A stretch of 64,000 nucleotides of DNA from a virus (IMGVR_UViG_3300025608_000013:1-64000), one strand, 5' to 3'. Shown: positions 15,667 to 31,557, counted from the first letter of the stretch. The notes: generated from the letters alone by a model not told the origin. Made by a program: numbers and translations.

Positions 15667-16531
15667 CGCTCCATCCTATTTTATCTGTATTCATATCTGT
15701 CCATCCCAACAGTGCTAGTACTGCTGGAGATGCTTGTTCTATTCTTGTTTGAAAAATTTCTGCTAATTCTACAGCCGTGCTGTTTAGCTCTTGTTCGCCT
15801 AGTAGCGGTAAAATTTGTTCTTCTAAATAACGTGCATGTTCAAAAGGTAACGGATGCAATTCAGGACGTATTTCGTCTACTGTATCGCCTGGATTTGCTA
15901 CAGTTAGCGGACGAGTTTTTGAGTATGCTTCGAAGTGCTCGTCCGTTAGTCCATTCCATTCCATAATAGGAAGTGCGTCTGTGTTGATATATTCTTTGTA
16001 TTGATTGAGTATGCCATTGATACAAGTGTCGTCTAGAGATTTTGTTTGATCTAACACTGCATCTCTAGATGCTTTTTTATTATAAAAATCGTTAAAACTA
16101 AAATATACAGTTTTACAACCACGTTGTTCTAACATTGCTTTTATACTAGATATCATTGCACAATCTCGCATAACACAATGAATTGGGTCAGCCCATTGCC
16201 ACTGACTGGTATAGTTATAGTTGTTTAAGTTCATAGGCTTGTCACTAAGCTGCCCGTGGTACAAGTTGCCTGCACAATGCCAGCCATTCTTCTCAATCCA
16301 TCTGTCATCTCGATACATTGCTGTCCACTGTACTACAATAATATCGTCTTCGTTAAAATGATAAATGCTATCTGCTTCCCAGATGCGTGTAAAGATGTAC
16401 TGATTGCCAGCGCCGCTTTTCCCCCAGTTTTCCAAAACGTCAGCACGATCGTGATAGTGTGCTATCAAGAGATCTGCCCACGTAGGATAAAAGAACTGTG
16501 TTAAACTACATCCGAATGTAAATAATCTCAT
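15659..16531 (-). CDS. SGNH/GDSL-like hypothetical protein
   Basis: FGCSLT, GKSGAGN and C-terminal ELHP blocks. Confidence 0.5.
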   Translation of the reverse strand: MRLFTFGCSLTQFFYPTWADLLIAHYHDRADVLENWGKSGAGNQYIFTRIWEADSIYHFNEDDIIVVQWTAMYRDDRWIEKNGWHCAGNLYHGQLSDKPMNLNNYNYTSQWQWADPIHCVMRDCAMISSIKAMLEQRGCKTVYFSFNDFYNKKASRDAVLDQTKSLDDTCINGILNQYKEYINTDALPIMEWNGLTDEHFEAYSKTRPLTVANPGDTVDEIRPELHPLPFEHARYLEEQILPLLGEQELNSTAVELAEIFQTRIEQASPAVLALLGWTDMNTDKIGWSDD

Positions 16532-17991
16532 GCTAATCTTCTAACTAGTTCAATAATAGTTTTATGAGGAATAAATTTAGCATTGTGTTTGTTAGATTCA
16601 AGATTATTAATTACTTGATCAGCAAATTCTCTTGCACTGGGAGATATTACTTCGTATTGTTCTTTTATTGACTGAATATCAAAATGTCCAATGCCATGCA
16701 ACACTAAAAGATAGTTTAGTTTATCAAATAATTTATAACTATTTTCACTACCAAAATCTAAATCAATAGGAAGTCTATGTTTCCACATTTTCATGTTTTG
16801 TTCTAGTCTCGGAGGAAGCGGTACAGACTTTTGATCTTTCCAAAACGGAGTATCTTCTCTATCAACTACATAATGCAATGCTACAAAATCTTTGATATCT
16901 TCTAAAATATCTTTTACTTCTTGATTATAAAGTTCTATACTTCTATCGGTATAATTTATAATTCGACTAGCAAGTAAAAAACTTTGTTGGATACTAGTAC
17001 CGATACTAGTTGCTTCTAAAGGTTCAACAAAACTAGCACTTAGACCAATTGCTGTACAATTTTTGATCCAACAGTCTTCTAATCTTCCTGGATCAAATGT
17101 AAAACTTTTCGCTACTTCGACTTCGTGTCCTAAGTACTCTTCAACTTCTTGTTTTGCTTGTTCGGGTGTAATATAATTTTTATCAAAAATATAACCGTTG
17201 CCTTTTCTTCCATAAGTAGGAATTCTAAACATCCATCCTGCATCCATTGCCCTAGCAAGTGTCCACATAGGATATTCGTCTTCATCTTTTGTCGGGAAAA
17301 CAATAGCACTGTTCATACGCAGATGTTCTGAATAACTAGTCCATTTGGCTCCTAATTTATTCATTAGTACTCGTTTAAAACCTGTACAATCTACATAAAA
17401 GTCGTATTCGTAATTGTCATTTTTACCAATGATATTAGTGATGCCGTCTTTGTCTACTTCTACGTCTGTAATAACGTCGTCGTATACATCAATATTATAT
17501 TGTTTTGCAATTTTATGCAAAAACTGATTTAACTTATGAGTGTTAAAATGAAATTGTGCTACTGGAAAATCTCGAAGTGTTTCGTGTATATGATTGTCCC
17601 AGCCAATTTCACTATTCCAAACGCTATCAAAAACAATACTATCTCGTTCTTCGCTTATAAGTTTTCCGTATACAATAGGATAGTCATGCCAAATTACATG
17701 ATAATCGCCTTCTACCGTTTGTATATAAGGCTTTTCTGTCCAGTTTTCAAAATAAATTCCTGCTTTAAAAGTTGCATCAGTTTCTTTTAACATAGTTGGA
17801 GGATCGATATGCAAAAAGTCCATAAACTCTTTCCAATGTTCAGTTGATCCTTCTCCGACACCGATAATACCAATGTCAGAAGATTCTACAATGTCAACTT
17901 TTAAAGTTGGATAAGTTCTTTTTAAAATAAGAGCCGAAACTAGACCTGCCGTTCCGCCGCCTACTACACAAATTGATTTAGGATTTTTCAT
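16528..17991 (-). CDS. Flavin-dependent halogenase, tryptophan halogenase (PrnA) family
   Basis: GGGTAG, IGVGEGS, ATFKAGI (catalytic Lys), DCTGF, WMFRIP (WxWxIP variant), FVEPLEATSI. ATG 17991 follows TATAAATA. Confidence 0.88.
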   Translation of the reverse strand: MKNPKSICVVGGGTAGLVSALILKRTYPTLKVDIVESSDIGIIGVGEGSTEHWKEFMDFLHIDPPTMLKETDATFKAGIYFENWTEKPYIQTVEGDYHVIWHDYPIVYGKLISEERDSIVFDSVWNSEIGWDNHIHETLRDFPVAQFHFNTHKLNQFLHKIAKQYNIDVYDDVITDVEVDKDGITNIIGKNDNYEYDFYVDCTGFKRVLMNKLGAKWTSYSEHLRMNSAIVFPTKDEDEYPMWTLARAMDAGWMFRIPTYGRKGNGYIFDKNYITPEQAKQEVEEYLGHEVEVAKSFTFDPGRLEDCWIKNCTAIGLSASFVEPLEATSIGTSIQQSFLLASRIINYTDRSIELYNQEVKDILEDIKDFVALHYVVDREDTPFWKDQKSVPLPPRLEQNMKMWKHRLPIDLDFGSENSYKLFDKLNYLLVLHGIGHFDIQSIKEQYEVISPSAREFADQVINNLESNKHNAKFIPHKTIIELVRRLA

Positions 17992-17996
17992 AACAA

Positions 17997-18046
17997 TATT
18001 TATAGGAGCCATCTTTAAATTTATATAATCTTGGTATTCTTAAATA
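17997..18046. promoter_or_regulatory. Back-to-back late-promoter-like motifs (TATAAATA on -, CTTAAATA on +)
   Basis: - strand 18004-17997 then TTGTT-ATG; + strand 18039-18046 then CATT-ATG. Confidence 0.65.
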
Positions 18047-18050
18047 CATT

Positions 18051-18665
18051 ATGCAAGAACTTATACTAGAAACTAAGCCAATCATAGAATGCAATATAGA
18101 TCAAACTAAAGTATTAAATCATGAGACAAACAAAAATAATCTCATGCATATTGTACAAGATTTATATGCTAGTAACGTAAACTATAATAACAGCCATCAC
18201 AGTTCAGTATGGCAAAGTCCTAATGGGCTACAAAGCATACACAGTATGAACTCATTAGTTAATGGTCCTGAGATTGGAGCATATTCAGGAATCTTGCAAA
18301 ACAGATATAAATTAAAAGCAAACAAAAGACTAGCAATTGTTGACATGTGGATTACAATTACTCCACCTGGTGGACAATTAGTACCTAAGCGTAGACTTAA
18401 AAGTTTGATTACTGGAGTTTATTTCTTGCATACTCCTAAAGAAAATGCAACAATGAATTTTAAGAAACCTATAGACCCACACTGGTACGAAAAAGTATTT
18501 GATCCGTTTAATAGAACTGAACATAATTCACCTGAAGAATTATTAGAGATGAATGAAGGATGGATATATTTTTATCCTAGTTATATTGAGTCTCATACTA
18601 CAACTAATAACAGTAAAGAAGAAAGAGTTACAATCGACTTTGTACTTGATGTAGTAGACAAATGA
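18051..18665 (+). CDS. 2OG-Fe(II) oxygenase-like protein with degenerate metal ligands
   Basis: MWITITPPGG....TGVYF...YPSYI...N.S.EER..I.F scaffold, but KRR where HxH/D is expected. Confidence 0.6.
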   Translation: MQELILETKPIIECNIDQTKVLNHETNKNNLMHIVQDLYASNVNYNNSHHSSVWQSPNGLQSIHSMNSLVNGPEIGAYSGILQNRYKLKANKRLAIVDMWITITPPGGQLVPKRRLKSLITGVYFLHTPKENATMNFKKPIDPHWYEKVFDPFNRTEHNSPEELLEMNEGWIYFYPSYIESHTTTNNSKEERVTIDFVLDVVDK

Positions 18666-19093
18666 CCATAGAAGCTTTATTCGATGATAACAACAATCAT
18701 AAATTTAGTTATTTGCTTCTTGCAAAAGAAAGCATTGACCATGCTACTTATGAATTGTTACACGAGGAACTTTCTAAAAAAATAAATGTAGTTCCGTTAC
18801 GAGCGAGTAAATACTCTGATGAAGATTTACGCAAAGCAGTTGAGTTAGCAGACTACGTAGTTACCGGTATAGGCAAAGTTTTAGATATTTGTGTAGAATT
18901 AGAACAGCCGGCATTGTGTGATGTTGCATCAAACAAATTAGATAAAACGTATCCGACGTTTATAGACTTTTATGATCCGTTTAGAAACGAAGAAACAAAA
19001 CCTTTTTATCAACCTAAAGATTTAGAATTATTAATAGAAGAGATATACAAACAACTTGATAGGCACAAAATAGATTATGTCAACTTTATGTAG
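18662..19093 (+). CDS. Hypothetical protein
   Basis: 143-aa ORF overlapping both neighbours. Confidence 0.6.
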   Translation: MTIEALFDDNNNHKFSYLLLAKESIDHATYELLHEELSKKINVVPLRASKYSDEDLRKAVELADYVVTGIGKVLDICVELEQPALCDVASNKLDKTYPTFIDFYDPFRNEETKPFYQPKDLELLIEEIYKQLDRHKIDYVNFM

Positions 19094-20015
19094 CGCATTG
19101 TGGAAACACACTAATATTAGACCTGGTGGACGAGTTTATCCTTGCTGCCGGTTTAAGTCGTGTGTAGGTAAAACTGACGGAGATTTATCTAGTGTTTTAC
19201 ATTCTGATGCATATAAATCGATACGTGCTAGTATGTTGAATAATGAAAAGATTATTGGCTGCGAAAAATGCTACTACGAGGAAAGTATTGGACATAAAAG
19301 CCTACGTGAAGAGTTTAACGAAAAATACGACACAGATAGTGTAGGATTAGAATACTTAGAAATTGGTATTGACAATCTTTGTAATCTAGTATGTGATGGT
19401 TGTAACTCAGAGTTTAGTACTAGTTGGCGAGCGAAAGAAATTCGCGAACAAGGCAGTGCAAATTACGATTATATGACTATCGATAATATTACTAGTGTGC
19501 CCAACACTGTGCGTAAAATATTATTTCTAGGCGGCGAGCCATTAATTACAAAGCGTCATTTAGAGCTATTAAAGCTAGTAGAAGATCCTAGTAAAGTCAG
19601 TGTTGTGTATAACACCAATGCAATGTATATGCCTGATTTAGAAACAGAAAGCATTTGGGATAAATTTAAAAACGTTAGATTTATCGTAAGTGTCGACGGT
19701 GTAGAAGAAGTTGCAGAGCGTGTAAGAGGAGGAACAAAATGGGAGAAAGTAAAACAATTTGTTCATTATGCTGTTACTAATTACGAACTAGAATTTAATA
19801 CAGTGCTACATAAAAATAACTTTTTTGATATCGAAAATATCAATAGTTATGTAGGACAATATAATGCAGATTGGTATATTAATGTGCTAACGTATCCCAA
19901 AAATTTAGATATAAACACGCTGGATAATCAAGACAAAAGTTATATAAAGCAGACAGCAGAACGTTTAGAACTTCCTACAAAAGATTTTATTATCAATCAC
20001 CTTGATACCAACTAA
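19077..20015 (+). CDS. Radical SAM protein with N-terminal SPASM/twitch-like Cys cluster
   Basis: CNLVCDGC (CxxxCxxC), GGEP, SVDG; N-terminal C..W..PCC...CEKC. Confidence 0.85.
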   Translation: MSTLCSALWKHTNIRPGGRVYPCCRFKSCVGKTDGDLSSVLHSDAYKSIRASMLNNEKIIGCEKCYYEESIGHKSLREEFNEKYDTDSVGLEYLEIGIDNLCNLVCDGCNSEFSTSWRAKEIREQGSANYDYMTIDNITSVPNTVRKILFLGGEPLITKRHLELLKLVEDPSKVSVVYNTNAMYMPDLETESIWDKFKNVRFIVSVDGVEEVAERVRGGTKWEKVKQFVHYAVTNYELEFNTVLHKNNFFDIENINSYVGQYNADWYINVLTYPKNLDINTLDNQDKSYIKQTAERLELPTKDFIINHLDTN

Positions 20016-21186
20016 GCAAATCGTTTGCTAATCTGCTAGGCTCTGGCATGCTATTCAGTACTTTATATGTTTGATAGTTGTGCATAAGAATAGGCATCAA
20101 TTTTTCATAAACTGATTTCATTTCATTCATGTTTAAAGAATTTAATTTATCAATTTCTTTCCAACACATTTCAAGACGTTTTTGGTCGTCTAATTCTTTA
20201 TCATAACTTTCGTCTATAATATTTCCAAATGTAATAAATCCCATATCATGTAATAGATCTAGTGTTCCTGGCAATCCAATTACAACAAATGGATGTCCGT
20301 ATAAAAAACATTTAAGTACTTTTTCTGTAAACATTTGACGAGAATTACTTCGAGCAAAATCGCCTTCAGTAATAATACTAAAGTAACTTTGGTTAAAATA
20401 GTTTTCTAAATTTGGCATGTTTACTTTTACAGAATGATGTAAATTTTCAGTTACATCTAATTCTAAAGGAAGACATTTTAAACGTTCTTTTTGATCTTGT
20501 TCTAGCACTAGATTATTTAGATCAGGATCTAAAAACTTTCGCATATTCTTGTCACCTTCGCTTAACTTTACAGTATTATCGTCGTGTACTAGTGCAGCAT
20601 ACTCTCCTAGCATACAACTTAAAAATGTATGCTTTGCTATATCGTGTTTTAATAGATAGTCAACAGTTAGAATTCTATGTAATCGTTCTTGTCTATTTAA
20701 ACACAAAAACTTTTTATTTCTTAGTTGTGTATTAACTAAAAAATTATGTTCTTGAACATTTAAATTATCATATTCGGACAAGTGTACATGAATGTTAAAA
20801 TAAAGATAATTATTACTATTACCAAAAACATGTTTGCAAATATTTTTCATTTTAGCGTTGCTACTAAGAATTCTCCAGTGTTTAATACTAGGACAATGTT
20901 CTAGTGTATTTTTAAACATCTGCATAAATTCTTCGTTTGCTAAACCTTCATAACTGTCATCTAAAATTAAAAATAGATCAGTATTAGCAAATCTTTCTAA
21001 CATGCTTGGCATTTGACTAAGCATATATTCGTTATTACCTACAAATTCAAAGAAAAGGATCATCTGAGGTTGTACTATAAAACTTTCTTGATCTACAGTA
21101 AATCTCAATATGTCTTCGTACTTCTGATTCAATACTTCGTAAGTTCTTGCACCACCTTGAAGAAATGCTGTAGGTATATTAATCAT
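19993..21186 (-). CDS. Glycosyltransferase-like protein (GT10-like C-terminal motif)
   Basis: KFLCLNR..R.HR, YFSIITE, FTEKVLKC...HPFVVIG...L..GF.TF..IDESYD. Confidence 0.5.
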   Translation of the reverse strand: MINIPTAFLQGGARTYEVLNQKYEDILRFTVDQESFIVQPQMILFFEFVGNNEYMLSQMPSMLERFANTDLFLILDDSYEGLANEEFMQMFKNTLEHCPSIKHWRILSSNAKMKNICKHVFGNSNNYLYFNIHVHLSEYDNLNVQEHNFLVNTQLRNKKFLCLNRQERLHRILTVDYLLKHDIAKHTFLSCMLGEYAALVHDDNTVKLSEGDKNMRKFLDPDLNNLVLEQDQKERLKCLPLELDVTENLHHSVKVNMPNLENYFNQSYFSIITEGDFARSNSRQMFTEKVLKCFLYGHPFVVIGLPGTLDLLHDMGFITFGNIIDESYDKELDDQKRLEMCWKEIDKLNSLNMNEMKSVYEKLMPILMHNYQTYKVLNSMPEPSRLANDLLSWYQGD

Positions 21187-22055
21187 AGCTTTTCCATCTT
21201 GTGTTTGATAAGTGCTTCGGGCTGAGGCTTTCTATCTGGATTAGCAGGACACATTGCACATATAGCATGCGGTTGTCTAATGTTATCAATAAACTCGTTT
21301 AATTGTTGTTCTGTACAATCTAATCCTAGTCCGCTGTACTCTAAATAAGGAGCCCAATCCGGATCGTCTAACTGTAAACTTTTAGTTAGATGTGTTTTAA
21401 CCATGCTAATAGGAGGGCATTTATATAACCTATTTTTATATATAATAGGATAAACGTTAGCACTGCAATTAGCATAACTTCTTGCAGGATCGTTATCAGT
21501 CCACGGCTTTAACACTCCGTTTACTGTTTGTCTATAATCATACCAATCGCCTTGAGTAGGATCAGTAGTCTCAAATACAATATCTTTGTATTGCCATGTG
21601 TTTGGTCCTGTTTGATACCACGGATATTGTTTAAAAATATACTTTTTGATATTTCTATCAATAATAGACCTTACTTGCGGATCTCGATTATGATAAGTTA
21701 AACTAATCTTAGCATTTCCTATTTCTAGTAATTGTTCTATTAGTTTAGGACGCTTAGGAAATAGTAATCCGTTTGTATAAATTTCTATGCAAGCATGATC
21801 AAAATGAGTTCTTGTGGTATTGATAATGTCACTGATATACGGATGCAATAAGGGCTCACCGCCTATTAATGTTAAATTGTCAGGGTCAAGATGCTTACTC
21901 CATGCTTCCATATTTTGAGTAATATCGTCGAACGATTCTGTCCAGTTATGATTATAGTCAATGAAACGATCACACCCCGGGCAAGCTAAGTCGCACGAGG
22001 TGGTAATCATCCATTCAAGGAAAGGTAGCCAGTGTCCTCTGTCACCGTCACGCAT
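21183..22055 (-). CDS. Radical SAM protein
   Basis: CDLACPGC, GGEPLLHP, YTNG; C-terminal C..KCP..CAMC. Confidence 0.85.
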   Translation of the reverse strand: MRDGDRGHWLPFLEWMITTSCDLACPGCDRFIDYNHNWTESFDDITQNMEAWSKHLDPDNLTLIGGEPLLHPYISDIINTTRTHFDHACIEIYTNGLLFPKRPKLIEQLLEIGNAKISLTYHNRDPQVRSIIDRNIKKYIFKQYPWYQTGPNTWQYKDIVFETTDPTQGDWYDYRQTVNGVLKPWTDNDPARSYANCSANVYPIIYKNRLYKCPPISMVKTHLTKSLQLDDPDWAPYLEYSGLGLDCTEQQLNEFIDNIRQPHAICAMCPANPDRKPQPEALIKHKMEKL

Positions 22056-23116
22056 TAGTTAAAGTAATCTTCTCTTGAACCTTTACGCTTAGTATCAAGT
22101 GTTACACAATGGAAGCCACCACTTAGTGTACGTGCTTGACGCATAGGTAATCCGATTGACTCAATGCCATGTTGATCTAATACTTTACGTAGTTCGTGCT
22201 GATTTTCGTCACAAATAACTAGTTCTTCGTTAACACTCATAAAGTTTAAACCAATGTACTTACTACAAGGGCTTACACCGTTTGCTAGGTTAGTACCAAT
22301 GTCGTGTACTTTGTCACCTGGGAAGAAAATCTTATCCCATGACTCAAAGATTGGCGGATACCAATCAGGAGTAATTCTGTCACCATTAAACAATACTAGT
22401 CCTGGACGTAGAGGAATAACAGTACTGTCAAAGTGCGAGTAGCTGTAGAATTTCTCTGCCAAGTGAATACGATAACCTAGTGGCTCAAGGATAGTTTTTA
22501 ACCACTGACCGCCTAGTAGTGTACCCGAGTTACTAACTTGATACAACAAGTCATTGCCAAGACGTACTACGTTAGGTGCATCGAATACAATCTCTTTGTT
22601 TACTAGCGTAGGAATACTCAAGTCTTCCAACTGATAACTTTCGTCAAGCAGTTTAGGACGTGGAGCACTAATCCATTGTGATCCGCCTTCCATTGCTTCA
22701 TACAAGAATTCTCTGTATGCTGTTGTTTCAAATTGACGAGCTCGCATAGCGCCAGGACAATCAATAATAAGATTATCCAATGGCAGCAACAAGTCTCTCG
22801 GACAATATGTATACCATCCTGTTGTTTTCCAATCAGGTGTACTAAACTCTTTCGAGTGGTCAATTGACTCTGGACGTCTTACTTTTACGCCTAAGTCTGA
22901 TAACACTTTTGCAAATCCGTCCAAGTCTTCGTTTGCTTCGTCAATTACCCACTGCGGGCTTGGTCCTTCTAAGTCTTTGATGTGTTCCCATTTGCAGTCT
23001 GCAAATCCAAAACTATGTGTTGATTTGTCTACAGTAGGAATACGAGCGTGGTCTGCAATTCCTACAAACACTTCCTCTAATGGATCCCAGTCGTTATGAC
23101 TACTTACTACTGTCAT
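22055..23116 (-). CDS. Amidinotransferase (glycine / inosamine-phosphate amidinotransferase family)
   Basis: SHNDWDPLEEVFVG, YCPRD, FDAPN, SHFDST, GGFHCVTLD (catalytic D/H/C). Confidence 0.88.
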   Translation of the reverse strand: MTVVSSHNDWDPLEEVFVGIADHARIPTVDKSTHSFGFADCKWEHIKDLEGPSPQWVIDEANEDLDGFAKVLSDLGVKVRRPESIDHSKEFSTPDWKTTGWYTYCPRDLLLPLDNLIIDCPGAMRARQFETTAYREFLYEAMEGGSQWISAPRPKLLDESYQLEDLSIPTLVNKEIVFDAPNVVRLGNDLLYQVSNSGTLLGGQWLKTILEPLGYRIHLAEKFYSYSHFDSTVIPLRPGLVLFNGDRITPDWYPPIFESWDKIFFPGDKVHDIGTNLANGVSPCSKYIGLNFMSVNEELVICDENQHELRKVLDQHGIESIGLPMRQARTLSGGFHCVTLDTKRKGSREDYFN

Positions 23117-23975
23117 TAATTTTCTCTCCTATTAATTCTGATATACAAACTCTGTTTACTTCGGTACCGCGATTATAGTCTGCAAATTCGTCGCCGCCTA
23201 AGCCAAACATAATACAATCTGTTTCTTTTAGATTATGTTCTTTACATACTTCTAAGTACATAGATTCATATGTGTTCCAGTTATGATCAACACTATAAGT
23301 GTCTATTAACCTACTAGCAATACTTAACGAAACACGGTTAACCATTTCAACAGAGTTGAAAACATCAATACCGTCGTCTGTTTCAAATCGTTCTAAACGC
23401 ATGCCTACACGTAAAAACTCTGCACCATAAAATGCTTTACTAATACTAAACGTAATAGTTGTTACACACAGATAATCATCTAAATTAATATCAATATTTT
23501 TAGTACAAGGATAGTATGCAAAGTCTAACAATACAGGAATGCCAAATTTTTCACACAAGTCTAGTGTTTCTAACATCTTAGGATGTGTAGTTCCGTAGTC
23601 ACTGAACGGCACACTAATAATAACTGCATCGCCTGGCATTACCGGAGTTTCGTCTGTGATATACTCACTCAATCCGCCGTGTTTTAGTACAGCACCGTGA
23701 TACATAAATTCGCCTTCAAAAAAACGAAAACGCAAATCTTTATGACGCCAATAAAAATGATCAAATGCTTGTGCTGTTCCTGAAACAAGTTTACGATTTA
23801 CAAACTCGTCTAAGCCTTGTACGCTATTAAGTTTACTAGACGTAATCCAGTTGTAAAATTTTTCTGTAAATTCTTGCTGAATAGTTTCATTATATAGATC
23901 AACACTAGGGTTTACTGACTCAATAAACTCTCTAATGTTGTTATCTACTACAGGTTTAGCACCCCGTAAATTCAT
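23100..23975 (-). CDS. PLP-dependent fold-type I enzyme (aminotransferase-like)
   Basis: PVLLDFAY and FSISKAF..RVG PLP-binding motifs. Confidence 0.65.
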   Translation of the reverse strand: MNLRGAKPVVDNNIREFIESVNPSVDLYNETIQQEFTEKFYNWITSSKLNSVQGLDEFVNRKLVSGTAQAFDHFYWRHKDLRFRFFEGEFMYHGAVLKHGGLSEYITDETPVMPGDAVIISVPFSDYGTTHPKMLETLDLCEKFGIPVLLDFAYYPCTKNIDINLDDYLCVTTITFSISKAFYGAEFLRVGMRLERFETDDGIDVFNSVEMVNRVSLSIASRLIDTYSVDHNWNTYESMYLEVCKEHNLKETDCIMFGLGGDEFADYNRGTEVNRVCISELIGEKINDSSK

Positions 23976-24474
23976 CTCTAACTCCGGTTACTTGCATTGT
24001 ATATTTTGTTGTTAGTCCCATGTTACCACTTAAATGAGGCTCATCACGTAGTATAATTATAGCATCACCACGCTTCCAATGCAAGACCGATTTTTCATTT
24101 ATTTCAAAATAATGTCCACTTTGCCAGTCTTCTAAAAAAATATTTACTCTGCAACATGCATACGGATCTACATCATTATTTTTAGCAAACTTATAAAAAG
24201 TATCTTCGTGACTGGGTAGTGTTTGTCCTGGTGCTTGTTTCATAATACTTACACTGTATCTAGGAAACAGTGTACGACAAAAGTTGTGTATTTCGTCGTC
24301 AAACTCAAAACACTGTAAGTACTTAGAATTTTCAGTAGTGTAGCCTGCTTTAAAGTAACGCATGTTTTGTTCTTCAAACTCGCTAGCACGACCTTCGATT
24401 GTTACATTATCATGCTCGACCCACGAATGAGTTTTATATTTAAAGTCGGGTAATTTTAGTGTTATTTTATCCAT
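23956..24474 (-). CDS. Cupin / 2OG-oxygenase-like protein
   Basis: QAPGQTLPSHED (HxD), distal PH, C-terminal YTMQVTG. Confidence 0.65.
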   Translation of the reverse strand: MDKITLKLPDFKYKTHSWVEHDNVTIEGRASEFEEQNMRYFKAGYTTENSKYLQCFEFDDEIHNFCRTLFPRYSVSIMKQAPGQTLPSHEDTFYKFAKNNDVDPYACCRVNIFLEDWQSGHYFEINEKSVLHWKRGDAIIILRDEPHLSGNMGLTTKYTMQVTGVRDEFTGC

Positions 24475-25214
24475 GGCTTATCGTAAGGTGCCTTTTCTTT
24501 TTCATCAAACCAGTACAAGCTACGATGTGGAGGAAACTTATCATCGTGTTGTGCATTGCTTACATAATAAAACAATCTAATATTTTTTCGACATGTACCG
24601 TCTGGATTCTTCATAGGTTCTGGATAGCCGTGATATGCTAAATTATTGTAACTCCAAACAACCATATTACCTGGACCTGGAACAACACGACTTAAAACTT
24701 TTTTACGGTCAGTGTCATAGAAGTCTAAGTTGCCGCCCCAGTTTTCATCCCATTCTTCATTTAAATAGATCACAACACTCAAGCGTCTGTGTAACCGCAA
24801 CTGATCATTCCAATTAAAGTCTGTATGTACTTTTAAGCTATCGCCGCTGTAAGCTTTAGAATAACCTGCGCCTACTAGATGCGGATCAGGAATTAAATCT
24901 ACTGTATCAGTTACTTCTTGTAACCATTTGATGAACGTAGCACTGTGTAATGTATGCACAACTTCGTCTTGCACAGGCGTGTTGTCAAGTTTGTTATACT
25001 CGTACATGCAACTATCTCGACGAGTAAACTTTTTACATTCGTCTAAAGGAATTGACTCTAGTTCTGCTGCTAGTGCTTGGACCACGCCTAGCGGCAATAG
25101 TTCTTTAACCTCAAGCTTAGAGTACCCAGGATGATTACGATACTCTTGCTGAAGCTCAAAGGTATTAGAGAATTCGTCCTTGATTCTCTCTAATATTTGT
25201 TTTTTATACTGCAT
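24462..25214 (-). CDS. 2OG-Fe(II) oxygenase
   Basis: LKVHTDFN, IYLN..W..WGGNL, YHGYP, R.NIRLFYY. Confidence 0.85.
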   Translation of the reverse strand: MQYKKQILERIKDEFSNTFELQQEYRNHPGYSKLEVKELLPLGVVQALAAELESIPLDECKKFTRRDSCMYEYNKLDNTPVQDEVVHTLHSATFIKWLQEVTDTVDLIPDPHLVGAGYSKAYSGDSLKVHTDFNWNDQLRLHRRLSVVIYLNEEWDENWGGNLDFYDTDRKKVLSRVVPGPGNMVVWSYNNLAYHGYPEPMKNPDGTCRKNIRLFYYVSNAQHDDKFPPHRSLYWFDEKEKAPYDKPWIK

Positions 25215-27007
25215 TAATTTTTAACCGTTATTAACTTTCCATATTCAGGTAAGAATAGATATTCTATGTCACTACTATACAACGTTCTAACTGCATCGTC
25301 AAGTGTTTCTACAAGAGGTTCGCCACCTAAATTAAAACTTGTATTAAAGATGATAGGAACACCTGACTGTTTATAAAATTCTTCAATAACAGCATAGTAG
25401 TGCGCATTGTGCTCTTGCTTAACTGTTTGAATTCGACAAGTGCCGTCTACGTGAATAATGCTAGGAATCTTTTCAGCAACACCTTCTTGACAATCCATTG
25501 CATACATCATATGTGGCGTTTCTTCTTTACCGCGCATATCAAACCATTCATGTGCATGTTCTGCTAGAATAGATCCTGCAAACGGACGGAAGTATTCACG
25601 GCGCTTAATACGGTTAACATGATCCTTGCCATCTTCAAAAGTTGGATCAAACATTAAACTTCTGTTACCTAATGCACGTGGTCCAGCTTCTGAACGTCCT
25701 TGGAACATTGCTACAATATTTTTATCACGCATAAGTTTTACGACTTCTTCTGTTGTAAACTCTTGTGAATGTGCGTCATACTTTTCAACTACGCTGTCAA
25801 TTTCTTCGTCAGTATAGTTGTATTGCGGACCTAAGTACAAGCTATCAGCATACGGTCTTACGTTCATATCTTTCATTAAAGAATGATAGTGCATATATGC
25901 TGCTCCAATACAAGTACCTGCATCCGAACTAATTGGTTCTACATACAGGTTAATGCCATGCTTGTTAAGTTCTTCTAAATACCAGTAGTTAGCAACACAG
26001 TTTAAACCGTAGCCGCCGGATACTACTACATTTTTATTTCCTGTACGTTCTACTGCTTCTAAAATAAGATCTAGTACACGTTGTTGCGACTCGCTTTGTA
26101 CAGCATAAGCTAAGTCTCTACGACTTTGTAGTTTTGTTAAATCACCGTTATAATCTTCTTTAGCTGTTTTTAAAACTTCATAACGATTTTCGTTTACTAC
26201 TGCTCCGTTTGGATATGTAGGAATAATTAAATTACGATTAGCAGTTACCCATTCGTTTCCGCCGTCGTCTGTGTATACAGGAGGAATACCATCATTAGGT
26301 TTACCGTAAGGAGCAAGACCCATTGTCTTACCTGCTTCAATTGGCTGCCATCCACAGTATTGTGTTACTGCTTCATATGCTTTAACAATACCAGCTGTGT
26401 CATCAATAATTAATTCGTGTGTACCAGGTTCACCTTCTCTTTCAGAGCTAACTTCCATTTTAGCACCCATCCAAGGACCGCGTCCACCTTGATGTTTTAC
26501 TAGAGTCTTAAAGTTAGCTGGATATTCACAACTGAAAATAGTCTCTAGTTCCCATGTCATTTCTTGTGATTCGCCAAACATCATAGGAATAAACGTGCCT
26601 GCGCCGTCAACAATAACCGCTGTAGCACTTTCAAATCCCGAGCGATAAAATGCACATGCTGCATGTAACTTGTGATGTACCCATGCATAGTCAATTACTT
26701 GTGGGTGTTCTCTGCCTTCGTACTTTTGATCAATAAGTCCTAGTTTACGTGCAAGTCCTGTATATACATCATCACCGCTAAAGTCAATCTTGCCAGCGGT
26801 TTCTTGTAAAGGCTGTGTATGTGCAATTACTAGATAATCTAGTTTATCAGTATAGTCAAGAATCTTAACCATGCCAGCTAACGGTCCGCCGTCATACTTC
26901 TGTCTTGACAGACGTTCTTCTTCTAGATGAAAAACTAGCTCGCCATCTTTAAGCAAGCATACTGCACCGTTGTGTCCTCGTGTAATACCTGCGATCCATT
27001 GTGCCAT
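25214..27007 (-). CDS. O-carbamoyltransferase, NodU/CmcH family
   Basis: EEERLSRQK, HHKLHA, VDGAG, GKTMGLAPYG, SGGYGLNCVAN, EAGPRALGNRS, KRREYFRPFA, HVDGTCRIQT, NTSFNLGGEP. Confidence 0.93.
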   Translation of the reverse strand: MAQWIAGITRGHNGAVCLLKDGELVFHLEEERLSRQKYDGGPLAGMVKILDYTDKLDYLVIAHTQPLQETAGKIDFSGDDVYTGLARKLGLIDQKYEGREHPQVIDYAWVHHKLHAACAFYRSGFESATAVIVDGAGTFIPMMFGESQEMTWELETIFSCEYPANFKTLVKHQGGRGPWMGAKMEVSSEREGEPGTHELIIDDTAGIVKAYEAVTQYCGWQPIEAGKTMGLAPYGKPNDGIPPVYTDDGGNEWVTANRNLIIPTYPNGAVVNENRYEVLKTAKEDYNGDLTKLQSRRDLAYAVQSESQQRVLDLILEAVERTGNKNVVVSGGYGLNCVANYWYLEELNKHGINLYVEPISSDAGTCIGAAYMHYHSLMKDMNVRPYADSLYLGPQYNYTDEEIDSVVEKYDAHSQEFTTEEVVKLMRDKNIVAMFQGRSEAGPRALGNRSLMFDPTFEDGKDHVNRIKRREYFRPFAGSILAEHAHEWFDMRGKEETPHMMYAMDCQEGVAEKIPSIIHVDGTCRIQTVKQEHNAHYYAVIEEFYKQSGVPIIFNTSFNLGGEPLVETLDDAVRTLYSSDIEYLFLPEYGKLITVKN

Positions 27008-27553
27008 TTAAAATTCTCCTATGTCGTATTCGAAATCTACTACAAATACTCTTCTTTTGTGTCTTGTAGGATATGTACCATGCCACATCCTTCCGTCCAT
27101 TATAACTAACGTTCCTGCTTCAGGCTTCCATTCTTCGTATGTAATAACATTATTGTTATTCATTACTCCGTACAAGTAACCTGCTTGTGGATGCTCTTGA
27201 TCTTCTACATAATCATCTAAGAACAACACACATGTAAATTGTCTTCCCGGTGTGTGACTGTGTAGTCCTGCATAACTATGTACAGGATAATCAACCCACC
27301 AACTTTTTGCATGTCTAATATTTTCGATTGGTAAACTTGTAACATGTTTTTTTAAATATTCTATATACTTGTATTCACTATCTATTATACTAGGATATTC
27401 ATAATTTTGCAAGTAAAAAACATTCGAATCCCCGCTATCTCTATGTGATTCTGATTCTAAATCAAATAGTTTATGGAATTTTTTATAGTCGTTATATTCG
27501 CTAGTATTATACCATAACGGCAAAAGACTGTGAACATAATCGTCATAATCCAT
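27008..27553 (-). CDS. 2OG-Fe(II) oxygenase-like protein
   Basis: HSH...FTCVLFL...WHGTYP..RRVFV. Confidence 0.65.
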   Translation of the reverse strand: MDYDDYVHSLLPLWYNTSEYNDYKKFHKLFDLESESHRDSGDSNVFYLQNYEYPSIIDSEYKYIEYLKKHVTSLPIENIRHAKSWWVDYPVHSYAGLHSHTPGRQFTCVLFLDDYVEDQEHPQAGYLYGVMNNNNVITYEEWKPEAGTLVIMDGRMWHGTYPTRHKRRVFVVDFEYDIGEF

Positions 27554-28605
27554 TAACTGCCTGTCCTATTTAAAATTTGTGCCGGCTGTGTTTGATCCAT
27601 GCTATGATCATGTCCGCAGCTATTTTGTGGCATTTCAATAGGTGTATATGTTCCTGTAAACTTAACACTCTTACCTAATCTTTTCTTAATACTAGCAATA
27701 ACTGTTTGCTTTTCTTCATCAGTCATTTCCATAACTTCGTCGTTTACGCGATCTTGCCAATCTTCCATTGTAGTACGAATTGGACTGTATATACGCTCGC
27801 CTTCACCTAAGTCAATAATGTCAAAGTCTGGATCGTTTGGATAACTGATGTTAATTGGGAATGTACTACCTGTTACAACAGTAGCAGTTTTACCCAATGC
27901 TTTAGCAAGGTGTTGTCCTAAGCTGTCGCAACCTACAAAGTGATCTGCAATCTCAATAACGCCTGCCCAAATACGTGCATCTGGAATTTGCGGCATTGCT
28001 ACTGGAGTTTTACTAGTATCGTTGTCGTCTAAAGCGATTGGAAATTCGCTCATTAGCATTACAGCATATTCTTTTTTAATTTCGTTAATAATATCAATTA
28101 CATCATTTAAGTGAAAGCTTCTACTAGTTGGATCAATAATGAATTCGCCCATGTTTTGTGTGCTACGACCAAATGGCTGTAGTACAACTACTTTGTCAAA
28201 ACCAGTTTTTGCTTTAACTTCTTGTACTACATTATATGCTTGTACAATTTCTTGCTTATTAAGGAAAACTTTAGGATCACTTACTGATCGTAAACCTTTG
28301 TTGTTAATAGCAATGTCAAATGCTTGTGCTAGACTTGCTTGTTGATTATAGTATTCCCAAACTCTATAAGGTTCTGGGCTTATACAATTGCGATCTTTAA
28401 TGTAGTCTTGGAATAAGTTTTTATGCCAAACATCGTATGCACGTTCATGTAGTACAGGATGACCTTTATAAAAGTCCATGCCGCCTTCGCATACAATAAT
28501 AAAATCGTCGTCGGGATTTTCTTCGTGGAATTTTTCAAATGCCGGAATTGAGCAGATTACTCTTCCTGCTCCACCGTTGATAAAAAATGCTGTGCTTCTA
28601 GACAA
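27553..28605 (-). CDS. GT-B glycosyltransferase, GT9 (ADP-heptose transferase)-like
   Basis: FVGCDSLGQHLAKALGK resembles the GT9 DSGxxHxAxA motif; N-terminal GGAGRV..SIP. TTG start at 28605 preferred because GGAGG lies 8 nt upstream (track start 28620). Confidence 0.65.
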   Translation of the reverse strand: MSRSTAFFINGGAGRVICSIPAFEKFHEENPDDDFIIVCEGGMDFYKGHPVLHERAYDVWHKNLFQDYIKDRNCISPEPYRVWEYYNQQASLAQAFDIAINNKGLRSVSDPKVFLNKQEIVQAYNVVQEVKAKTGFDKVVVLQPFGRSTQNMGEFIIDPTSRSFHLNDVIDIINEIKKEYAVMLMSEFPIALDDNDTSKTPVAMPQIPDARIWAGVIEIADHFVGCDSLGQHLAKALGKTATVVTGSTFPINISYPNDPDFDIIDLGEGERIYSPIRTTMEDWQDRVNDEVMEMTDEEKQTVIASIKKRLGKSVKFTGTYTPIEMPQNSCGHDHSMDQTQPAQILNRTGS

Positions 28606-28608
28606 AAA

Positions 28609-28651
28609 AACGTCCTCCATAAAATATAAAAATACTTATATAGAGGACGTT
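28609..28651 (-). promoter_or_regulatory. RBS-sequestering hairpin containing late promoter TATAAGTA
   Basis: mRNA AACGUCCUCUAUA...UAUGGAGGACGUU, 13 bp including one G-U; TATAAGTA at 28640-28633. Confidence 0.7.
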
Positions 28652-28676: not shown

Positions 28677-29384
28677 TTAGTCTGCGTTAGGATCCATCGC
28701 ACCTTTGGTTTTCTTACCTGCTGGTGAGCCTGGAAGCATTTGTACTGCTAGACCTGGTTCAAACTCTGCGAGTGCTGTAGGAGCATCGCGTAGTAGCTGG
28801 CGGTAAGTTAGCCATTCCTGGCGCATTTCTTCTGGCATTCCGTCGTCAATTACACCATCTGCATCGTCTAATGCATCGTTGCGGAACTTACGGAAATCGT
28901 CCCATGTAAAGCTATCTGGTACACCATGCGAGTCATGATCTTTAATAGGAATGTTAAATTCGCCAGTATCAAAGTCATATACAATGTTAAATTCATCGTA
29001 AATATCACGTGGTTCAAAATCTTCAGTTCTTAAAGTTTGTGTATTTTCATAACCGTCTGGACTAATTCCACTGTCAATCCATTCGCGTGTCTCACGAAGT
29101 TGAAGGGCTTCTTCTTTACCGCAATCGTTTGCGATTTCACAAAGCAACGGTTGCTCTTTGCAGTCTACAGTAACACGTTGTACATCAAGTGCGCACGGAC
29201 GTTCTAGATCTTCGTCAGTCCATAAACACCATCCTGATTCTTTACCACTAACTTTATCAATCTCAAAAGTTAAAAACTCTGGACCTTCGTATGTCCAAGT
29301 TCCGGTATTTCCGTTATTAAACTCTGCACAACACCACTCATCTGGTATTGGGTAAGTAAATTCTTTTGTAATGTATGTTGCCAT
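28677..29384 (-). CDS. Tail fibre assembly chaperone (Tfa-like C-terminal domain)
   Basis: WDDFRKFRNDALDDAD...EWLTYRQLLRDAP; ATG 29384 follows GAGGAG. Confidence 0.7.
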   Translation of the reverse strand: MATYITKEFTYPIPDEWCCAEFNNGNTGTWTYEGPEFLTFEIDKVSGKESGWCLWTDEDLERPCALDVQRVTVDCKEQPLLCEIANDCGKEEALQLRETREWIDSGISPDGYENTQTLRTEDFEPRDIYDEFNIVYDFDTGEFNIPIKDHDSHGVPDSFTWDDFRKFRNDALDDADGVIDDGMPEEMRQEWLTYRQLLRDAPTALAEFEPGLAVQMLPGSPAGKKTKGAMDPNAD

Positions 29385-29417
29385 TTTATTTAAGCTCCTC
29401 AAACATATTTATCATTA

Positions 29418-30254
29418 TTACATAAATGTTATTCTAACAACGCCTGAACCACCCTGTGTGCCACCGGCACAACATTTGTGAGCGTTATCGTAGTAACTAT
29501 TTTCGCCTGACTGTCCACCGCCAGCTGGCCAGTTGTTGTAACATCCGCAAACACACCATGTTTCTGATGCAGAGTTAAACGAACGTTTACCAATTATTGG
29601 TGCGGCGCCAGTCCAATTACCACGGCGTCTACAATGGTGATGACCGTTACCAAAACGCATACCTGTGTCACCCATCATTACCATATCGGCACCAAAACCG
29701 CCACAAATATTACAGTTAGCGCAACCCCATGAGCGATCATATACGCCCCAAGCGTCTGCGTTACAGTTCCATCCACTACAACCACCTGTTACACAGAAGT
29801 TGTTTAGGTTATGTCCGTTTACATATGAACGACATCCCATTCCTGCTGTACATGTATGTGATTTTTCACATGGCCATGAACCGCCAGCGCACACTGTATA
29901 TGTACAACCAGGTGTTGTTTCAATTGTTTTAATAGCGTAGTTTCCGCCTTGTCCAGAGATAGTATACATACAGCAGTTAGCACATGTACCTCCTGCGCCT
30001 GCTCCGCCGCCTGACCAAATTTCAAAAGTAACTGTTGAAACACCACCGGGCACTGTCCATAAACAACATTGACCATTTGACTGTCCGCAACAATCACCGT
30101 TGTTAGCGCACTGATGACATTCTAGGCCGCGTTGATTGTAGATCCACTGTACACCGTAGTTGTGTCCTGCACCAGGTGCTAGATCTGCTCTAGTCAGCTC
30201 TCGATCTGGAATACTTTCTGTTTTTACTTTTTTATAACTTGCGTATGACGCCAT
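29418..30254 (-). CDS. Cys/Gly-rich tail-tip-like protein, paralogue 1 (26 Cys)
   Basis: WTVPGGV..VTFEIWSGGGAGAG Gly-rich domain; GGSGVVRITF C-terminus. Confidence 0.7.
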   Translation of the reverse strand: MASYASYKKVKTESIPDRELTRADLAPGAGHNYGVQWIYNQRGLECHQCANNGDCCGQSNGQCCLWTVPGGVSTVTFEIWSGGGAGAGGTCANCCMYTISGQGGNYAIKTIETTPGCTYTVCAGGSWPCEKSHTCTAGMGCRSYVNGHNLNNFCVTGGCSGWNCNADAWGVYDRSWGCANCNICGGFGADMVMMGDTGMRFGNGHHHCRRRGNWTGAAPIIGKRSFNSASETWCVCGCYNNWPAGGGQSGENSYYDNAHKCCAGGTQGGSGVVRITFM

Positions 30255-31557
30255 CTTGTTTTTCCTATTCTTTAAGCAAACGTAATCTTAACAATGCCTG
30301 AACCGCCTTGACCTTGTCCGCCGCCGCAGCATTTTTCTGCTGTTTCACAGTAAGAACTCATTCCGCCTAGCGATCCGCCAGCTGGCCAGTTAACGTGATA
30401 TCCACATCCGCACCATGATTCTGTTAAAGACATTTGGTGAATTACTCCGCCTAGCATTGGTGCACCGCCTGTTGACTGGTGGTCAGCACCTTGACAATGA
30501 CAACCTGAGTGACCTAGTCTGTTTCCAACAAATCCCATAATACCAAAGTCTGCACCAAACATACCACAAATGTTACAGTTAGCACAGCCATATGACTTAT
30601 CATATGTACCCCATGCGTCACCATTACACATCCAGCCACCACAACCACCTGTTACACAGAAGTTGCTTAGGTTATGTCCGTTTACATATGAACGACATCC
30701 CATTCCAGCTGAACAAGTGTGTGACTTACTACACGGCCACGAGCCGCCGGCACATACTGTATATTGACAACCAGGTGTAGTACTAATATGCTTCATAGCA
30801 TAGTTTCCGCCGGCGCCGCCGCCATTAAATGAACAACAGTTACAACATGTCTGTCCGGCTCCGCCGCCTCCACCTGACCAAATTTCAAATGTTACTTTTG
30901 ATACACCACCGGGTACAGTCCATAAACAGCATCTTCCATTTGCTTGAGCACAACAGCCGCCAGCTGCTGAACAGGTTTGACATTGTAATGCTCGCTCAGC
31001 ATAAATCCACTGAACACAGGCTTGGTTACCTTCGCCAATTCCGATTTTTTCAGCTGCAATACTGCCGTCTTCGAATTGGTCTGTTTTTATTTTTTTATAA
31101 CTTGCGTAACTTGCCATTCTTTATCCTTTTACGTAAATGTAATTTTTACAATTCCCGAGCCGCCTTGACCCATGCCGCCTGCGCAACATTTTTCTGCTGT
31201 TTCACAATATGGAGAAACGCCTGATGCTCCGCCGCCAGCTGGCCAGTTTACATAACATCCGCAAGCACACCATGCTTCTGATGTTGCCACAGCTTGCATT
31301 TTACCAATTAAAGGTGCTTGTCCAGTAAAGCTAGTTTGTCCATGACATCTACATGCACTTCCGCCTGTTCTAAAGCCAGTTGTTCCTGGCATTGTCATAT
31401 CTGCTCCGCCAAAAGAAGCGCAAATATTACAACCTGCACAAGTACCATGAATACGTGGACCCCAAGCATCACCATTACACATCCAGCCGCCACAGCCGCC
31501 GATGACACAATAGTTGCTTAGGTTATGTCCGTTTACATATGAACGACATCCCATTCC
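29804..31557. repeat. 40-bp exact repeat x3 (29804-29843, 30667-30706, 31518-31557)
   Basis: TTAGGTTATGTCCGTTTACATATGAACGACATCCCATTCC is identical in all three paralogues. Confidence 0.9.
30272..31117 (-). CDS. Cys/Gly-rich tail-tip-like protein, paralogue 2 (29 Cys)
   Basis: Same architecture; MASYASYKK start. Confidence 0.7.
   Translation of the reverse strand: MASYASYKKIKTDQFEDGSIAAEKIGIGEGNQACVQWIYAERALQCQTCSAAGGCCAQANGRCCLWTVPGGVSKVTFEIWSGGGGGAGQTCCNCCSFNGGGAGGNYAMKHISTTPGCQYTVCAGGSWPCSKSHTCSAGMGCRSYVNGHNLSNFCVTGGCGGWMCNGDAWGTYDKSYGCANCNICGMFGADFGIMGFVGNRLGHSGCHCQGADHQSTGGAPMLGGVIHQMSLTESWCGCGYHVNWPAGGSLGGMSSYCETAEKCCGGGQGQGGSGIVKITFA

Follow-up and report, generated by a model that had tools for sequence, protein, structure and literature searches.

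What a marine phage makes with nine enzyme genes packed end to end behind its tail-fibre genes, and onto what it places the product, is the question raised by a locus on the 64,000-nucleotide stretch IMGVR_UViG_3300025608_000013:1-64000, which was analysed over its whole length and is referred to here as the window. A first-pass annotation had described positions 19993-28605 as a nine-gene operon that builds a guanidino- and O-carbamoyl-decorated sugar. The window derives from a T4-like marine myovirus related to Kyanoviridae, and its genes include those for a gp15-like sheath stabiliser, for proteins resembling gp9/10 and for fibre proteins of great length. Our analysis points to a mosaic, cytoplasmic glycan-tailoring island of two modules making a guanidino- and O-carbamoyl-decorated glycan, a reading that we consider probable on balance. 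The enzyme set and its linkage to glycosyltransferases sustain in part the annotated sugar-building role, the product and the acceptor being predictions, whereas neither the single nine-gene unit nor a streptidine or saxitoxin identity could be upheld.

Predicted amidino and carbamoyl transfer in a gapless gene block

The minus strand of 19993-28620 carries nine co-directional open reading frames (ORFs) of 172-597 aa, numbered g1 to g9 from 28620 downwards, which overlap at their junctions by 0, 1, 1, 13, 20, 17, 1 and 4 nt and therefore form a coding block with zero intergenic gaps, as had been claimed. The end coordinate of 28605 corresponds to a TTG start, 8 nt past a GGAGG, but an in-frame ATG at 28620 opens the same g1 frame; both starts fall within an 8-bp inverted repeat, ACGTCCTC...GAGGACGT.

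The identification of g7 as an amidinotransferase was confirmed. Pfam and NCBIfam gave no match, and phmmer against the PDB sequences aligned residues 2-351, the full length, with StrB1 (1BWD; E 3.4e-89, 302.8 bits), with weaker matches to SxtG (6U1R; 1.3e-54), HsvA (5WPI; 1.9e-53) and AGAT (2JDX; 8e-52). Residues D108, D179, H228, D230 and C337 of g7 are identical to and in register with the active-site residues of StrB1, whose catalytic Cys-His-Asp residues are C332/H227/D179. Judged by its sequence, g7 is a member of the AGAT/StrB1/SxtG pentein-fold amidinotransferases with a predicted activity on L-arginine, and relative phmmer bit scores place it closest to StrB1 among StrB1, SxtG, HsvA and AGAT. 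The databases hold 2,435 relatives of g7, with identity of at least 65% among the best 120 matches listed.

Two further observations concern g7. At loci L022-L050, g7 is 88-92% identical to the window copy, whereas the neighbouring g4, g5, g6 and g8 are 57-68%, g9 about 40% and the convergent 2-oxoglutarate (2OG) oxygenase 24-28% identical, and this excess reflects either a much stronger constraint on g7 or a recent exchange of g7 alone. A second, distant amidinotransferase-fold lineage is present in cyanophages, namely ORF266 of phage S-SCSM2R (L007 17354-18247), which has 22% identity to g7, keeps the C-terminal GG-x-HC-x-T and adjoins 2OG oxygenases and KdsA/KdsB.

The product of g3 matches both domains of the carbamoyltransferases above their curated cut-offs, Carbam_trans_N (PF02543, 85.5 bits, cut-off 24) and Carbam_trans_C (PF16861, 197.8 bits, cut-off 27), corresponding to a Kae1-like N-terminal and a YrdC-like C-terminal domain. 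Its matches in the PDB are 7xb6 (E 1e-59) and TobZ (E 7e-45), as well as GdmN and NovN, and it shares 68% identity with the carbamoyltransferase of phage S-SSM7. It had been annotated as a NodU carbamoyltransferase; the family is right, but against the NodU equivalog NF041651 it scores 142 bits with a cut-off of 1000, and g3 is accordingly best described as a NodU/CmcH/TobZ family member with predicted O-carbamoyltransferase activity and not as a NodU orthologue.

Two modules joined in one region

We collected 68 viral contigs that encode a homologue of g7 and located all of the window's genes on each of them (Table 1); many of these loci end early and some are near-duplicates, so that the counts are lower bounds and not independent observations. 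Besides g7 itself, homologues of g4-g6, g8 and g9, together with two of the three plus-strand genes that converge on them (18051-20015), recur at 43-63 of the 68 loci, the 143-aa gene between those two at 23, and the genes nearly always keep the window's order, g4-g5-g6-g7-g8-g9 being found at 40-97% identity across dozens of contigs. By contrast, g1-g3 adjoin the amidino cassette in only 3 to 8 of the 68 relatives, and L017 and L020, the closest relatives, are alone in having all nine genes in this arrangement. In contig L003, the homologue of the 19077-20015 radical S-adenosylmethionine (SAM) enzyme runs co-directional with the cassette, and from this and the counts the conserved cassette is g4-g9 plus the convergent trio, for which the limits 19993-28605 were too short. 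The region thus consists of two joined modules, A (g1-g3) and B (g4-g9 plus 18051-20015).

Module B is kept in about 50 of the 68 contigs, mostly away from tail fibres, and module A lies directly after tail-fibre genes in four cyanomyovirus isolates and six contigs from metagenomes. In S-SSM7, P-SSM2, S-CAM1 and S-CAM3 the order is constant: tail fibre, small or Cys-rich proteins, Tfa-like protein, g1 homologue, carbamoyltransferase, heptose genes (kinase/adenylyltransferase, phosphoheptose isomerase and epimerase) and a second tail fibre. The g1 homologue invariably has the carbamoyltransferase as its partner and follows tail-fibre genes, and the closest isolate homologues of g1 and g3 belong to Synechococcus and Prochlorococcus phages. 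The window itself conforms, since g1 is preceded by tail-fibre, Cys-rich paralogue and Tfa-like genes, and the annotated position directly downstream of the tail-tip genes is correct.

Wherever the cassette or a diverged form of it is found, glycosyltransferases and sugar-nucleotide enzymes are nearby. The neighbours are a UDP-Glc dehydrogenase, a GT1 and an epimerase in L003, a GT-A, a GT8, two sugar-type methyltransferases and a nucleotidyltransferase in L023, and a DegT, a UDP-Glc dehydrogenase and an epimerase around the g7 homologue in L008. In L086 the order is DegT aminotransferase, g7 homologue (42% identity), a fusion of g5-like and g9-like domains and a carbamoyltransferase; this gene set shows amidino and carbamoyl transfer co-occurring in a second, independent arrangement, which bears out the co-occurrence that had been annotated. 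Genes of the DegT (StsC) type flank g7 homologues in L008, L086 and S-SCSM2R, and in diverged relatives DegT takes the place of the PLP gene.

The separability of modules A and B also suits a different explanation, that the region holds no single pathway but is a hyperplastic spot collecting unrelated auxiliary genes, the tight packing being phage genome economy. The sporadic g2, a tryptophan halogenase and other unrelated genes in the same island agree with this, and the idea of 'stuffer DNA' has been raised by Sullivan et al. (PMC3037559). Such a spot would not be expected to maintain the g4-g9 order over so wide a range of identity, to fuse its genes or to recur as the same enzyme set in diverged lineages, and we regard this explanation as very unlikely.

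Table 1. Features of the island and related genes of the window, with the number of the 68 g7-bearing loci that carry a homologue.
Feature	Coordinates	Strand	Length (aa)	Assignment	Main evidence	Loci (of 68)
g1	27553-28620	-	355	Distant GT9-like (heptosyltransferase-like) protein, tentative	phrog_8954 E 9e-147; alternative TTG start 28605	6
g2	27008-27553	-	181	Probable small 2OG-Fe(II) oxygenase	phrog_81 E 9e-07 alone	3
g3	25214-27007	-	597	NodU/TobZ-type O-carbamoyltransferase, predicted	Two Pfam domains over curated cut-offs	8
g4	24462-25214	-	250	Prolyl-hydroxylase-type 2OG-Fe(II) oxygenase	PF13640 (2OG-FeII_Oxy_3) 59.7 bits	53
g5	23956-24474	-	172	Small AspH-like 2OG/cupin oxygenase	Invariant residues; PF05118 matches in relatives	62
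g6	23100-23975	-	291	Fold-type I PLP enzyme, HisC/CobD-like, predicted; Schiff-base lysine K180	AF2 model, Foldseek, motif	63
g7	22055-23116	-	353	StrB1-like L-arginine amidinotransferase, predicted	phmmer against PDB sequences; aligned catalytic residues	
g8	21183-22055	-	290	Radical SAM enzyme	PF04055 39.8 bits (cut-off 29.5)	51
g9	19993-21186	-	397	GT-B fold glycosyltransferase (predicted), virus-rich unnamed family, GT10-like at best	AF2 pLDDT 91.5	49
Twitch radical SAM	19077-20015	+	312	N-terminal-twitch radical SAM enzyme	NF033640 220.7 bits (cut-off 170); PF04055 31.4 bits	48
143-aa gene	18662-19093	+	143	Protein between 2OG and twitch radical SAM genes	No family match	23, low identity
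Convergent 2OG	18051-18665	+	204	2OG-Fe(II) oxygenase (2OG-FeII_Oxy_5), first of convergent trio	PF13759 45.1 bits; TIGR02466 E 8e-13	43
Tfa-like	28677-29402	-		Tail-fibre assembly protein, directly upstream of g1	phrog_9740, phrog_4912, PF16778	
GmhB-like	15094-15666	-		Heptose 1,7-bisphosphate phosphatase, putative donor supply for g1	NF006506 E 5.7e-40	
HldE-like and HldD-like	2802-4777	+		Heptose kinase/adenylyltransferase and ADP-heptose 6-epimerase	NF008454 E 7e-86; TIGR02197 E 4e-67	

Oxygenases, PLP enzyme and radical SAM enzymes

The 2OG oxygenase calls for g4 and g5 were borne out, g4 by its Pfam match (Table 1), with weak PDB matches to OGFOD1 and P4H, and g5 by the invariant H89, D91, R109 and H147, which include the HxD...H facial triad, and by its relatives, 18 of 45 of which match PF05118 (Asp_Arg_Hydrox, the Asp/Asn beta-hydroxylase model). 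There are 442 relatives of g5 among the cluster representatives. For g2 the same call depends on phrog_81, which makes a 2OG oxygenase probable, and the gene is a lineage-specific insert, sporadic in relatives.

The product of g6 has no sequence-family match, with Pfam below threshold and phmmer against PDB sequences empty, and since no Pfam model reaches threshold it can be placed in the fold-type I pyridoxal 5'-phosphate (PLP) enzymes at superfamily level only. Its AlphaFold (AF2) model, with a predicted local distance difference test (pLDDT) score of 88.8, has HisC (1uu1; E 5.5e-14, probability 1.00) as the top Foldseek match, followed by aspartate and tyrosine aminotransferases and the CobD decarboxylase. 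In a 28-sequence alignment D151, S177, S179, K180, R189 and G191 are invariant and Y154 is conserved in at least 90%, giving a D-x-AY / S-x-SK / R-x-G motif across which a profile search matches the aminotransferase 3if2. The annotation of a PLP enzyme is upheld by the predicted fold and the invariant Schiff-base motif; its role as a sugar aminotransferase is not, as no match to PF01041 (DegT/DnrJ/EryC1, StsC-type) was obtained and the best folds are HisC, CobD and aspartate aminotransferase. The model indicates that g6 is a fold-type I PLP enzyme and not a DegT sugar aminotransferase. Relatives of g6 number 276. Homologues of g5 and g6 (37-44% identity) also form an adjacent pair in three alphaproteobacterial metagenome-assembled genomes (MAGs; L013, L014, L015), with no amidinotransferase within about 8 kb; the Methylocystis pair adjoins a GT4 gene, in a context that also has oxidoreductase and methane monooxygenase genes and gives no clear pathway hint.

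That g8 encodes a radical SAM enzyme, as annotated, is supported by PF04055 and the CxxxCxxC motif (C21/C25/C28), and the protein has five further C-terminal cysteines (C197, C213, C247, C266 and C269). The convergent twitch enzyme has C102/C106/C109 and matches the SPASM and Radical_SAM models of Pfam. Its gene and g9 share 23 nt at their 3' ends (19993-20015), and the convergent transcripts would therefore be complementary across this overlap.

Glycosyltransferases and oxygenase fusions

The GT9-like call for g1 is carried by weak matches. Atlas clusters named heptosyltransferase score 0.99 for g1, 22% of one cluster carries PF01075, and three of nine homologues match this model at E 0.004 or weaker, g1 itself having no match; against the PDB, phmmer gave chance-level matches only and a nine-sequence profile yielded no GT9 match. 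We therefore retain GT9-like for g1 as a tentative assignment. It had also been suggested that this first gene places a heptose, and the HldE, HldD and GmhB homologues of the window fit a heptose-using g1.

For g9, the predicted structure confidently indicates a GT-B glycosyltransferase. Structural comparison (VIA) gave Z of 12.6 to 9 against many tied GT-B families, including FucT 5zoi at Z 11.3 with the best match at Z 12.6. The GT10 lead in the Atlas scores 0.80, there is no Pfam match (PF00852 included), and phmmer against PDB sequences remained at chance level. T287-E288-K289 is invariant and resembles the alpha-1,3-FucT motif with a different spacing. The annotation of g9 thus holds for the glycosyltransferase fold, GT10 being only one of several tied families. 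Its closest structural relatives, the BFVD matches, are uncharacterised phage proteins, and one of these is fused to a UDP-glucose/GDP-mannose dehydrogenase domain.

Six cluster representatives (P0422, P0427, P0428, P0440, P0451 and P0473) combine a g5-like oxygenase with one or two g9-like GT-B domains, and one such fusion was verified as a single ORF (L086 3382-6438). Pfam searches gave nothing useful for the fusion proteins, nor for the ORFs at 18662-19093, 15659-16531 and 14558-15076.

T4 DNA glucosyltransferases are among the ties of g9, T4 beta-GT, T4 alpha-GT and the HY126 DNA glycosyltransferase all being found with its best structural matches, and this raises the alternative that the decorated sugar is placed on the phage DNA, as in glycosylated 5-hydroxymethylcytosine (5hmC) and 5-hydroxycytosine (5hoC) systems, some with heptose. 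Thymidine hypermodification involves PLP and radical SAM enzymes. A precedent is offered by phage clusters for the addition of heptose to 5hmC, some of which are located near structural genes (bioRxiv 2023.12.21.572611). The GT-B matches of g9 are, however, generic to the fold, and a thymidylate-synthase-like hydroxymethylase and TGT/DpdA are absent from two essentially complete g7-bearing genomes, S-SCSM2R and a 343,632-bp related contig with a 99% completeness rating; the record of the window is a 92-kb fragment of 26% estimated completeness, and searches of that record carry little weight. Of the explanations considered here we find DNA hypermodification the least probable. The size of the related contig and the completeness estimate for the record together suggest that the genome of this T4-like lineage may be very large, roughly 350 kb.

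Proposed pathway and acceptor

In the pathway that we propose, the 2OG oxygenases and radical SAM enzymes would oxidise a sugar or a sugar-linked substrate, g6 would install an amine, g7 would move the amidino group of L-arginine via a Cys337 thiouronium intermediate to give a guanidino group, g9 would transfer or accept the sugar, g3 would O-carbamoylate it and g1 would probably use phage-made ADP-heptose, modules A and B together giving the guanidino- and O-carbamoyl-decorated glycan. The order of the steps, the substrate and the acceptor are what we infer from the enzymes. No transmembrane segment is predicted in any of the 12 island proteins (g1-g9 and the trio), and the island is without a membrane protein, flippase, ligase or polymerase. 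Given soluble enzymes and no export machinery, the acceptor probably resides in the cytoplasm or on the inner side of the membrane. We rank tail-fibre or other virion proteins first and the host envelope second, and favour the virion over the envelope, DNA and a free metabolite.

Three features favour a virion protein as the acceptor: the fixed position of module A at the tail fibres, the resemblance of g4 and g5 to protein hydroxylases and the hydroxylase-glycosyltransferase fusion. In its full form, which we put forward as a tentative proposal, less likely than not, the phage hydroxylates residues of its own tail fibre or adhesin and O-glycosylates them, and the sugar is then aminated, guanidinylated from arginine, O-carbamoylated and, here, also heptosylated.

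The same chemistry could instead decorate a glycan of the host envelope, either lipopolysaccharide (LPS) or another outer-membrane glycan, and thereby block superinfection or the adsorption of progeny to lysed cells. Cyanophage LPS genes have classically been read in this way, and Sullivan et al. (PMC3037559) list the homologous heptose genes among them. GT9 enzymes normally use the lipid A-core, a PAP2 lipid phosphatase adjoins the amidinotransferase cluster of Campylobacter phage CP220, and KdsA/KdsB lie beside the second amidinotransferase-fold gene of S-SCSM2R. An envelope pathway is less easily reconciled with an island devoid of membrane protein, flippase, ligase and polymerase genes, or with module A, whose place between tail-fibre genes is constant in four cyanophage genera and which shares the strand of the late structural genes; we consider it rather unlikely, although it comes next after the virion.

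The relatives of the two transferases allow yet another product, since g7 is nearest to StrB1 and g3 to TobZ, NovN and GdmN, which are antibiotic-pathway enzymes: a soluble guanidino secondary metabolite (aminoglycoside-like, capreomycidine- or enduracididine-like, or a toxin) directed against competitors or host metabolism. A 2OG oxygenase next to a HisC-like PLP enzyme is reminiscent of the arginine chemistry of VioC/VioD, and g5-g6 pairs are found in bacterial MAGs without g7. An antibiotic reading has been proposed for the S-SCSM2R genes (PMC12801897). No transporter, resistance gene, non-ribosomal peptide or polyketide synthase (NRPS/PKS) or kinase was found, however; the constant linkage to glycosyltransferases and the oxygenase-glycosyltransferase fusion point to a glycoconjugate, and a lytic phage has scant time to gain from an antibiotic, all of which makes a free metabolite improbable in our view.

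Several points weigh against a decorated glycan on the virion. The glycan product is predicted from the genes alone, and the GT9 and GT10 memberships of g1 and g9 are putative. The HisC/CobD-like group to which g6 belongs, in place of DegT, acts on amino-acid-like or phosphorylated substrates, and g4 and g5 resemble protein hydroxylases (OGFOD1/P4H and AspH). Modules A and B are adjacent in a minority of relatives and may therefore not share a substrate, most copies of module B are away from tail fibres, and collagen-like G-X-Y runs are absent from the 15 neighbouring structural proteins.

If the proposal is correct, the virion would carry a glycan that is positively charged, mimics arginine and serves to tune adsorption or to shield the receptor-binding tip, a post-translational modification that would be unknown in any virus. 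Whether displayed by the virion or at the cell surface, a guanidino glycan would be new to glycobiology and relevant to host range and adsorption in those marine phototroph-phage systems that are the most abundant. The cassette is abundant in ocean viromes and provides a tractable handle, as mass increments of +42 (amidino) and +43 (carbamoyl), combined with labelled arginine, could discriminate between virion, host envelope, DNA and free metabolite.

Genomic surroundings

The whole region had zero Megablast matches among 50,697 phage records. The exact T4 late-promoter octamer TATAAATA was found 4 times in the window, with 7.8 expected, and none lies ahead of g1; scans for sigma-70-like and terminator-like signals were at shuffle level. 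One of the four octamers (17997-18004, minus strand) is just inside the 5' end of the tryptophan halogenase gene (16528-18012; PF04820, E 4.5e-91), which belongs to the same island and starts 39 nt from the divergent 2OG gene at 18051; its homologues occupy the equivalent place in S-SSM7. The HldE and HldD genes are succeeded, at 4746-5650 on the plus strand, by an extra 2OG-FeII_Oxy_3 oxygenase and a small cupin, and these raise the unusually high oxygenase count of the window.

The fibre genes are separated from the Tfa-like gene by three tandem paralogues of about 280 aa (29418-31968) with 9.4-10.8% Cys and 17.6-20.6% Gly, and homologues of these precede g1 in every g1-bearing contig. Two radical SAM enzymes with auxiliary-cluster motifs are encoded nearby, and cross-linking of the cysteines is a candidate modification.

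Comparison with known systems

The closest characterised relative of g7 is StrB1, the scyllo-inosamine-4-phosphate amidinotransferase of the streptomycin pathway, to which it aligns over the full length, and some relatives of g7 are likewise paired with a DegT/StsC-type aminotransferase. The system differs in that g7 is phage-encoded, no inositol dehydrogenase or kinase is nearby and the PLP partner in the window is HisC-like. Family scans of g1-g9 and the trio found no kinase, NAD-dependent dehydrogenase, inositol enzyme or DegT, and those of the nine genes no SxtA-like gene, PKS or 8-amino-7-oxononanoate synthase (AONS) domain; without a kinase, inositol enzyme or SxtA-like gene, the locus encodes neither the streptidine nor the saxitoxin pathway. 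What survives of the annotated streptidine logic is a StrB1-like enzyme linked to an aminotransferase, oxidising enzymes and glycosyltransferases, with the StsC/StrB1 pairing in diverged relatives. We accordingly rejected the streptidine/bluensidine pathway, for which the inositol dehydrogenase, StsC-type aminotransferase and inosamine kinase are missing and the chemical logic alone is shared, and the saxitoxin pathway, for which there is no PKS/AONS domain and SxtG is a far weaker match to g7 than StrB1.

Module A belongs to an already known cyanophage cluster, that of carbamoyltransferase and heptose genes, whose heptose genes were listed as LPS genes by Sullivan et al. 2010 (PMC3037559). 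In the LPS/carbamoyltransferase clusters of P-SSM2, S-SSM7 and S-SM2 (T4-GC 302-308), g1 and g3 are homologous to T4-GC 302 and 303 at 45-68% identity, and these clusters, like that of the window, come after a tail fibre and have genes of the heptose pathway nearby. The three phages are without the amidinotransferase cassette, whereas in the window its insertion separates the carbamoyltransferase from the remainder of the island. Cyanophage sugar or 'LPS-like' islands have been catalogued since 2005, and what is added here is a defined and unusual step, the predicted guanidinylation from arginine by a StrB1-like enzyme.

Amidinotransferases have been annotated in two other T4-like or cyanophage settings. 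S-SCSM2R (BMC Biol 2025, PMC12801897) carries ORF305-309, called 'antibiotic synthesis genes', with an 'inosamine amidinotransferase' named by annotation only. It shares with the window the amidinotransferase (40% identity), an oxygenase resembling g5, a radical SAM enzyme resembling g8, an aminotransferase and, in its case, five glycosyltransferases, but differs in gene order, in its DegT/AHBA_syn-type aminotransferase, in lying away from tail fibres and in having no carbamoyltransferase annotated in the stretch examined. The ORF266 amidinotransferase-fold protein and a 2OG oxygenase were detected in purified S-SCSM2R virions, where the authors regard them as carried over (PMC12801897). In the T4-like Campylobacter phages CP220 and CPt10, Timms et al. 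2010 (PMC2853527) described, by annotation only, a module of radical SAM enzymes and an amidinotransferase. The latter is a full-length homologue of g7 at 27% identity and lies among five radical SAM genes and two nucleotide-sugar (GT-A-like) transferases; in the 15-kb stretch of CP220 examined, however, tblastn (E 1e-4 or better) found no homologue of the PLP, 2OG or carbamoyltransferase genes of the cassette, and the host is unrelated.

Fusions of a hydroxylase with a glycosyltransferase are known from the collagen-modifying LH3/PLOD3 and from mimivirus L230, and the relatives of g5 and g9 resemble these in joining a 2OG oxygenase to a glycosyltransferase. Here the families are AspH-like and GT-B, the neighbouring structural proteins have no collagen-like repeats and the protein substrate is hypothetical. 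Compared with all of these systems, the new elements are the conserved amidino cassette of nine genes, its abundance, the oxygenase-glycosyltransferase fusion and the repeated pairing with carbamoyl transfer.

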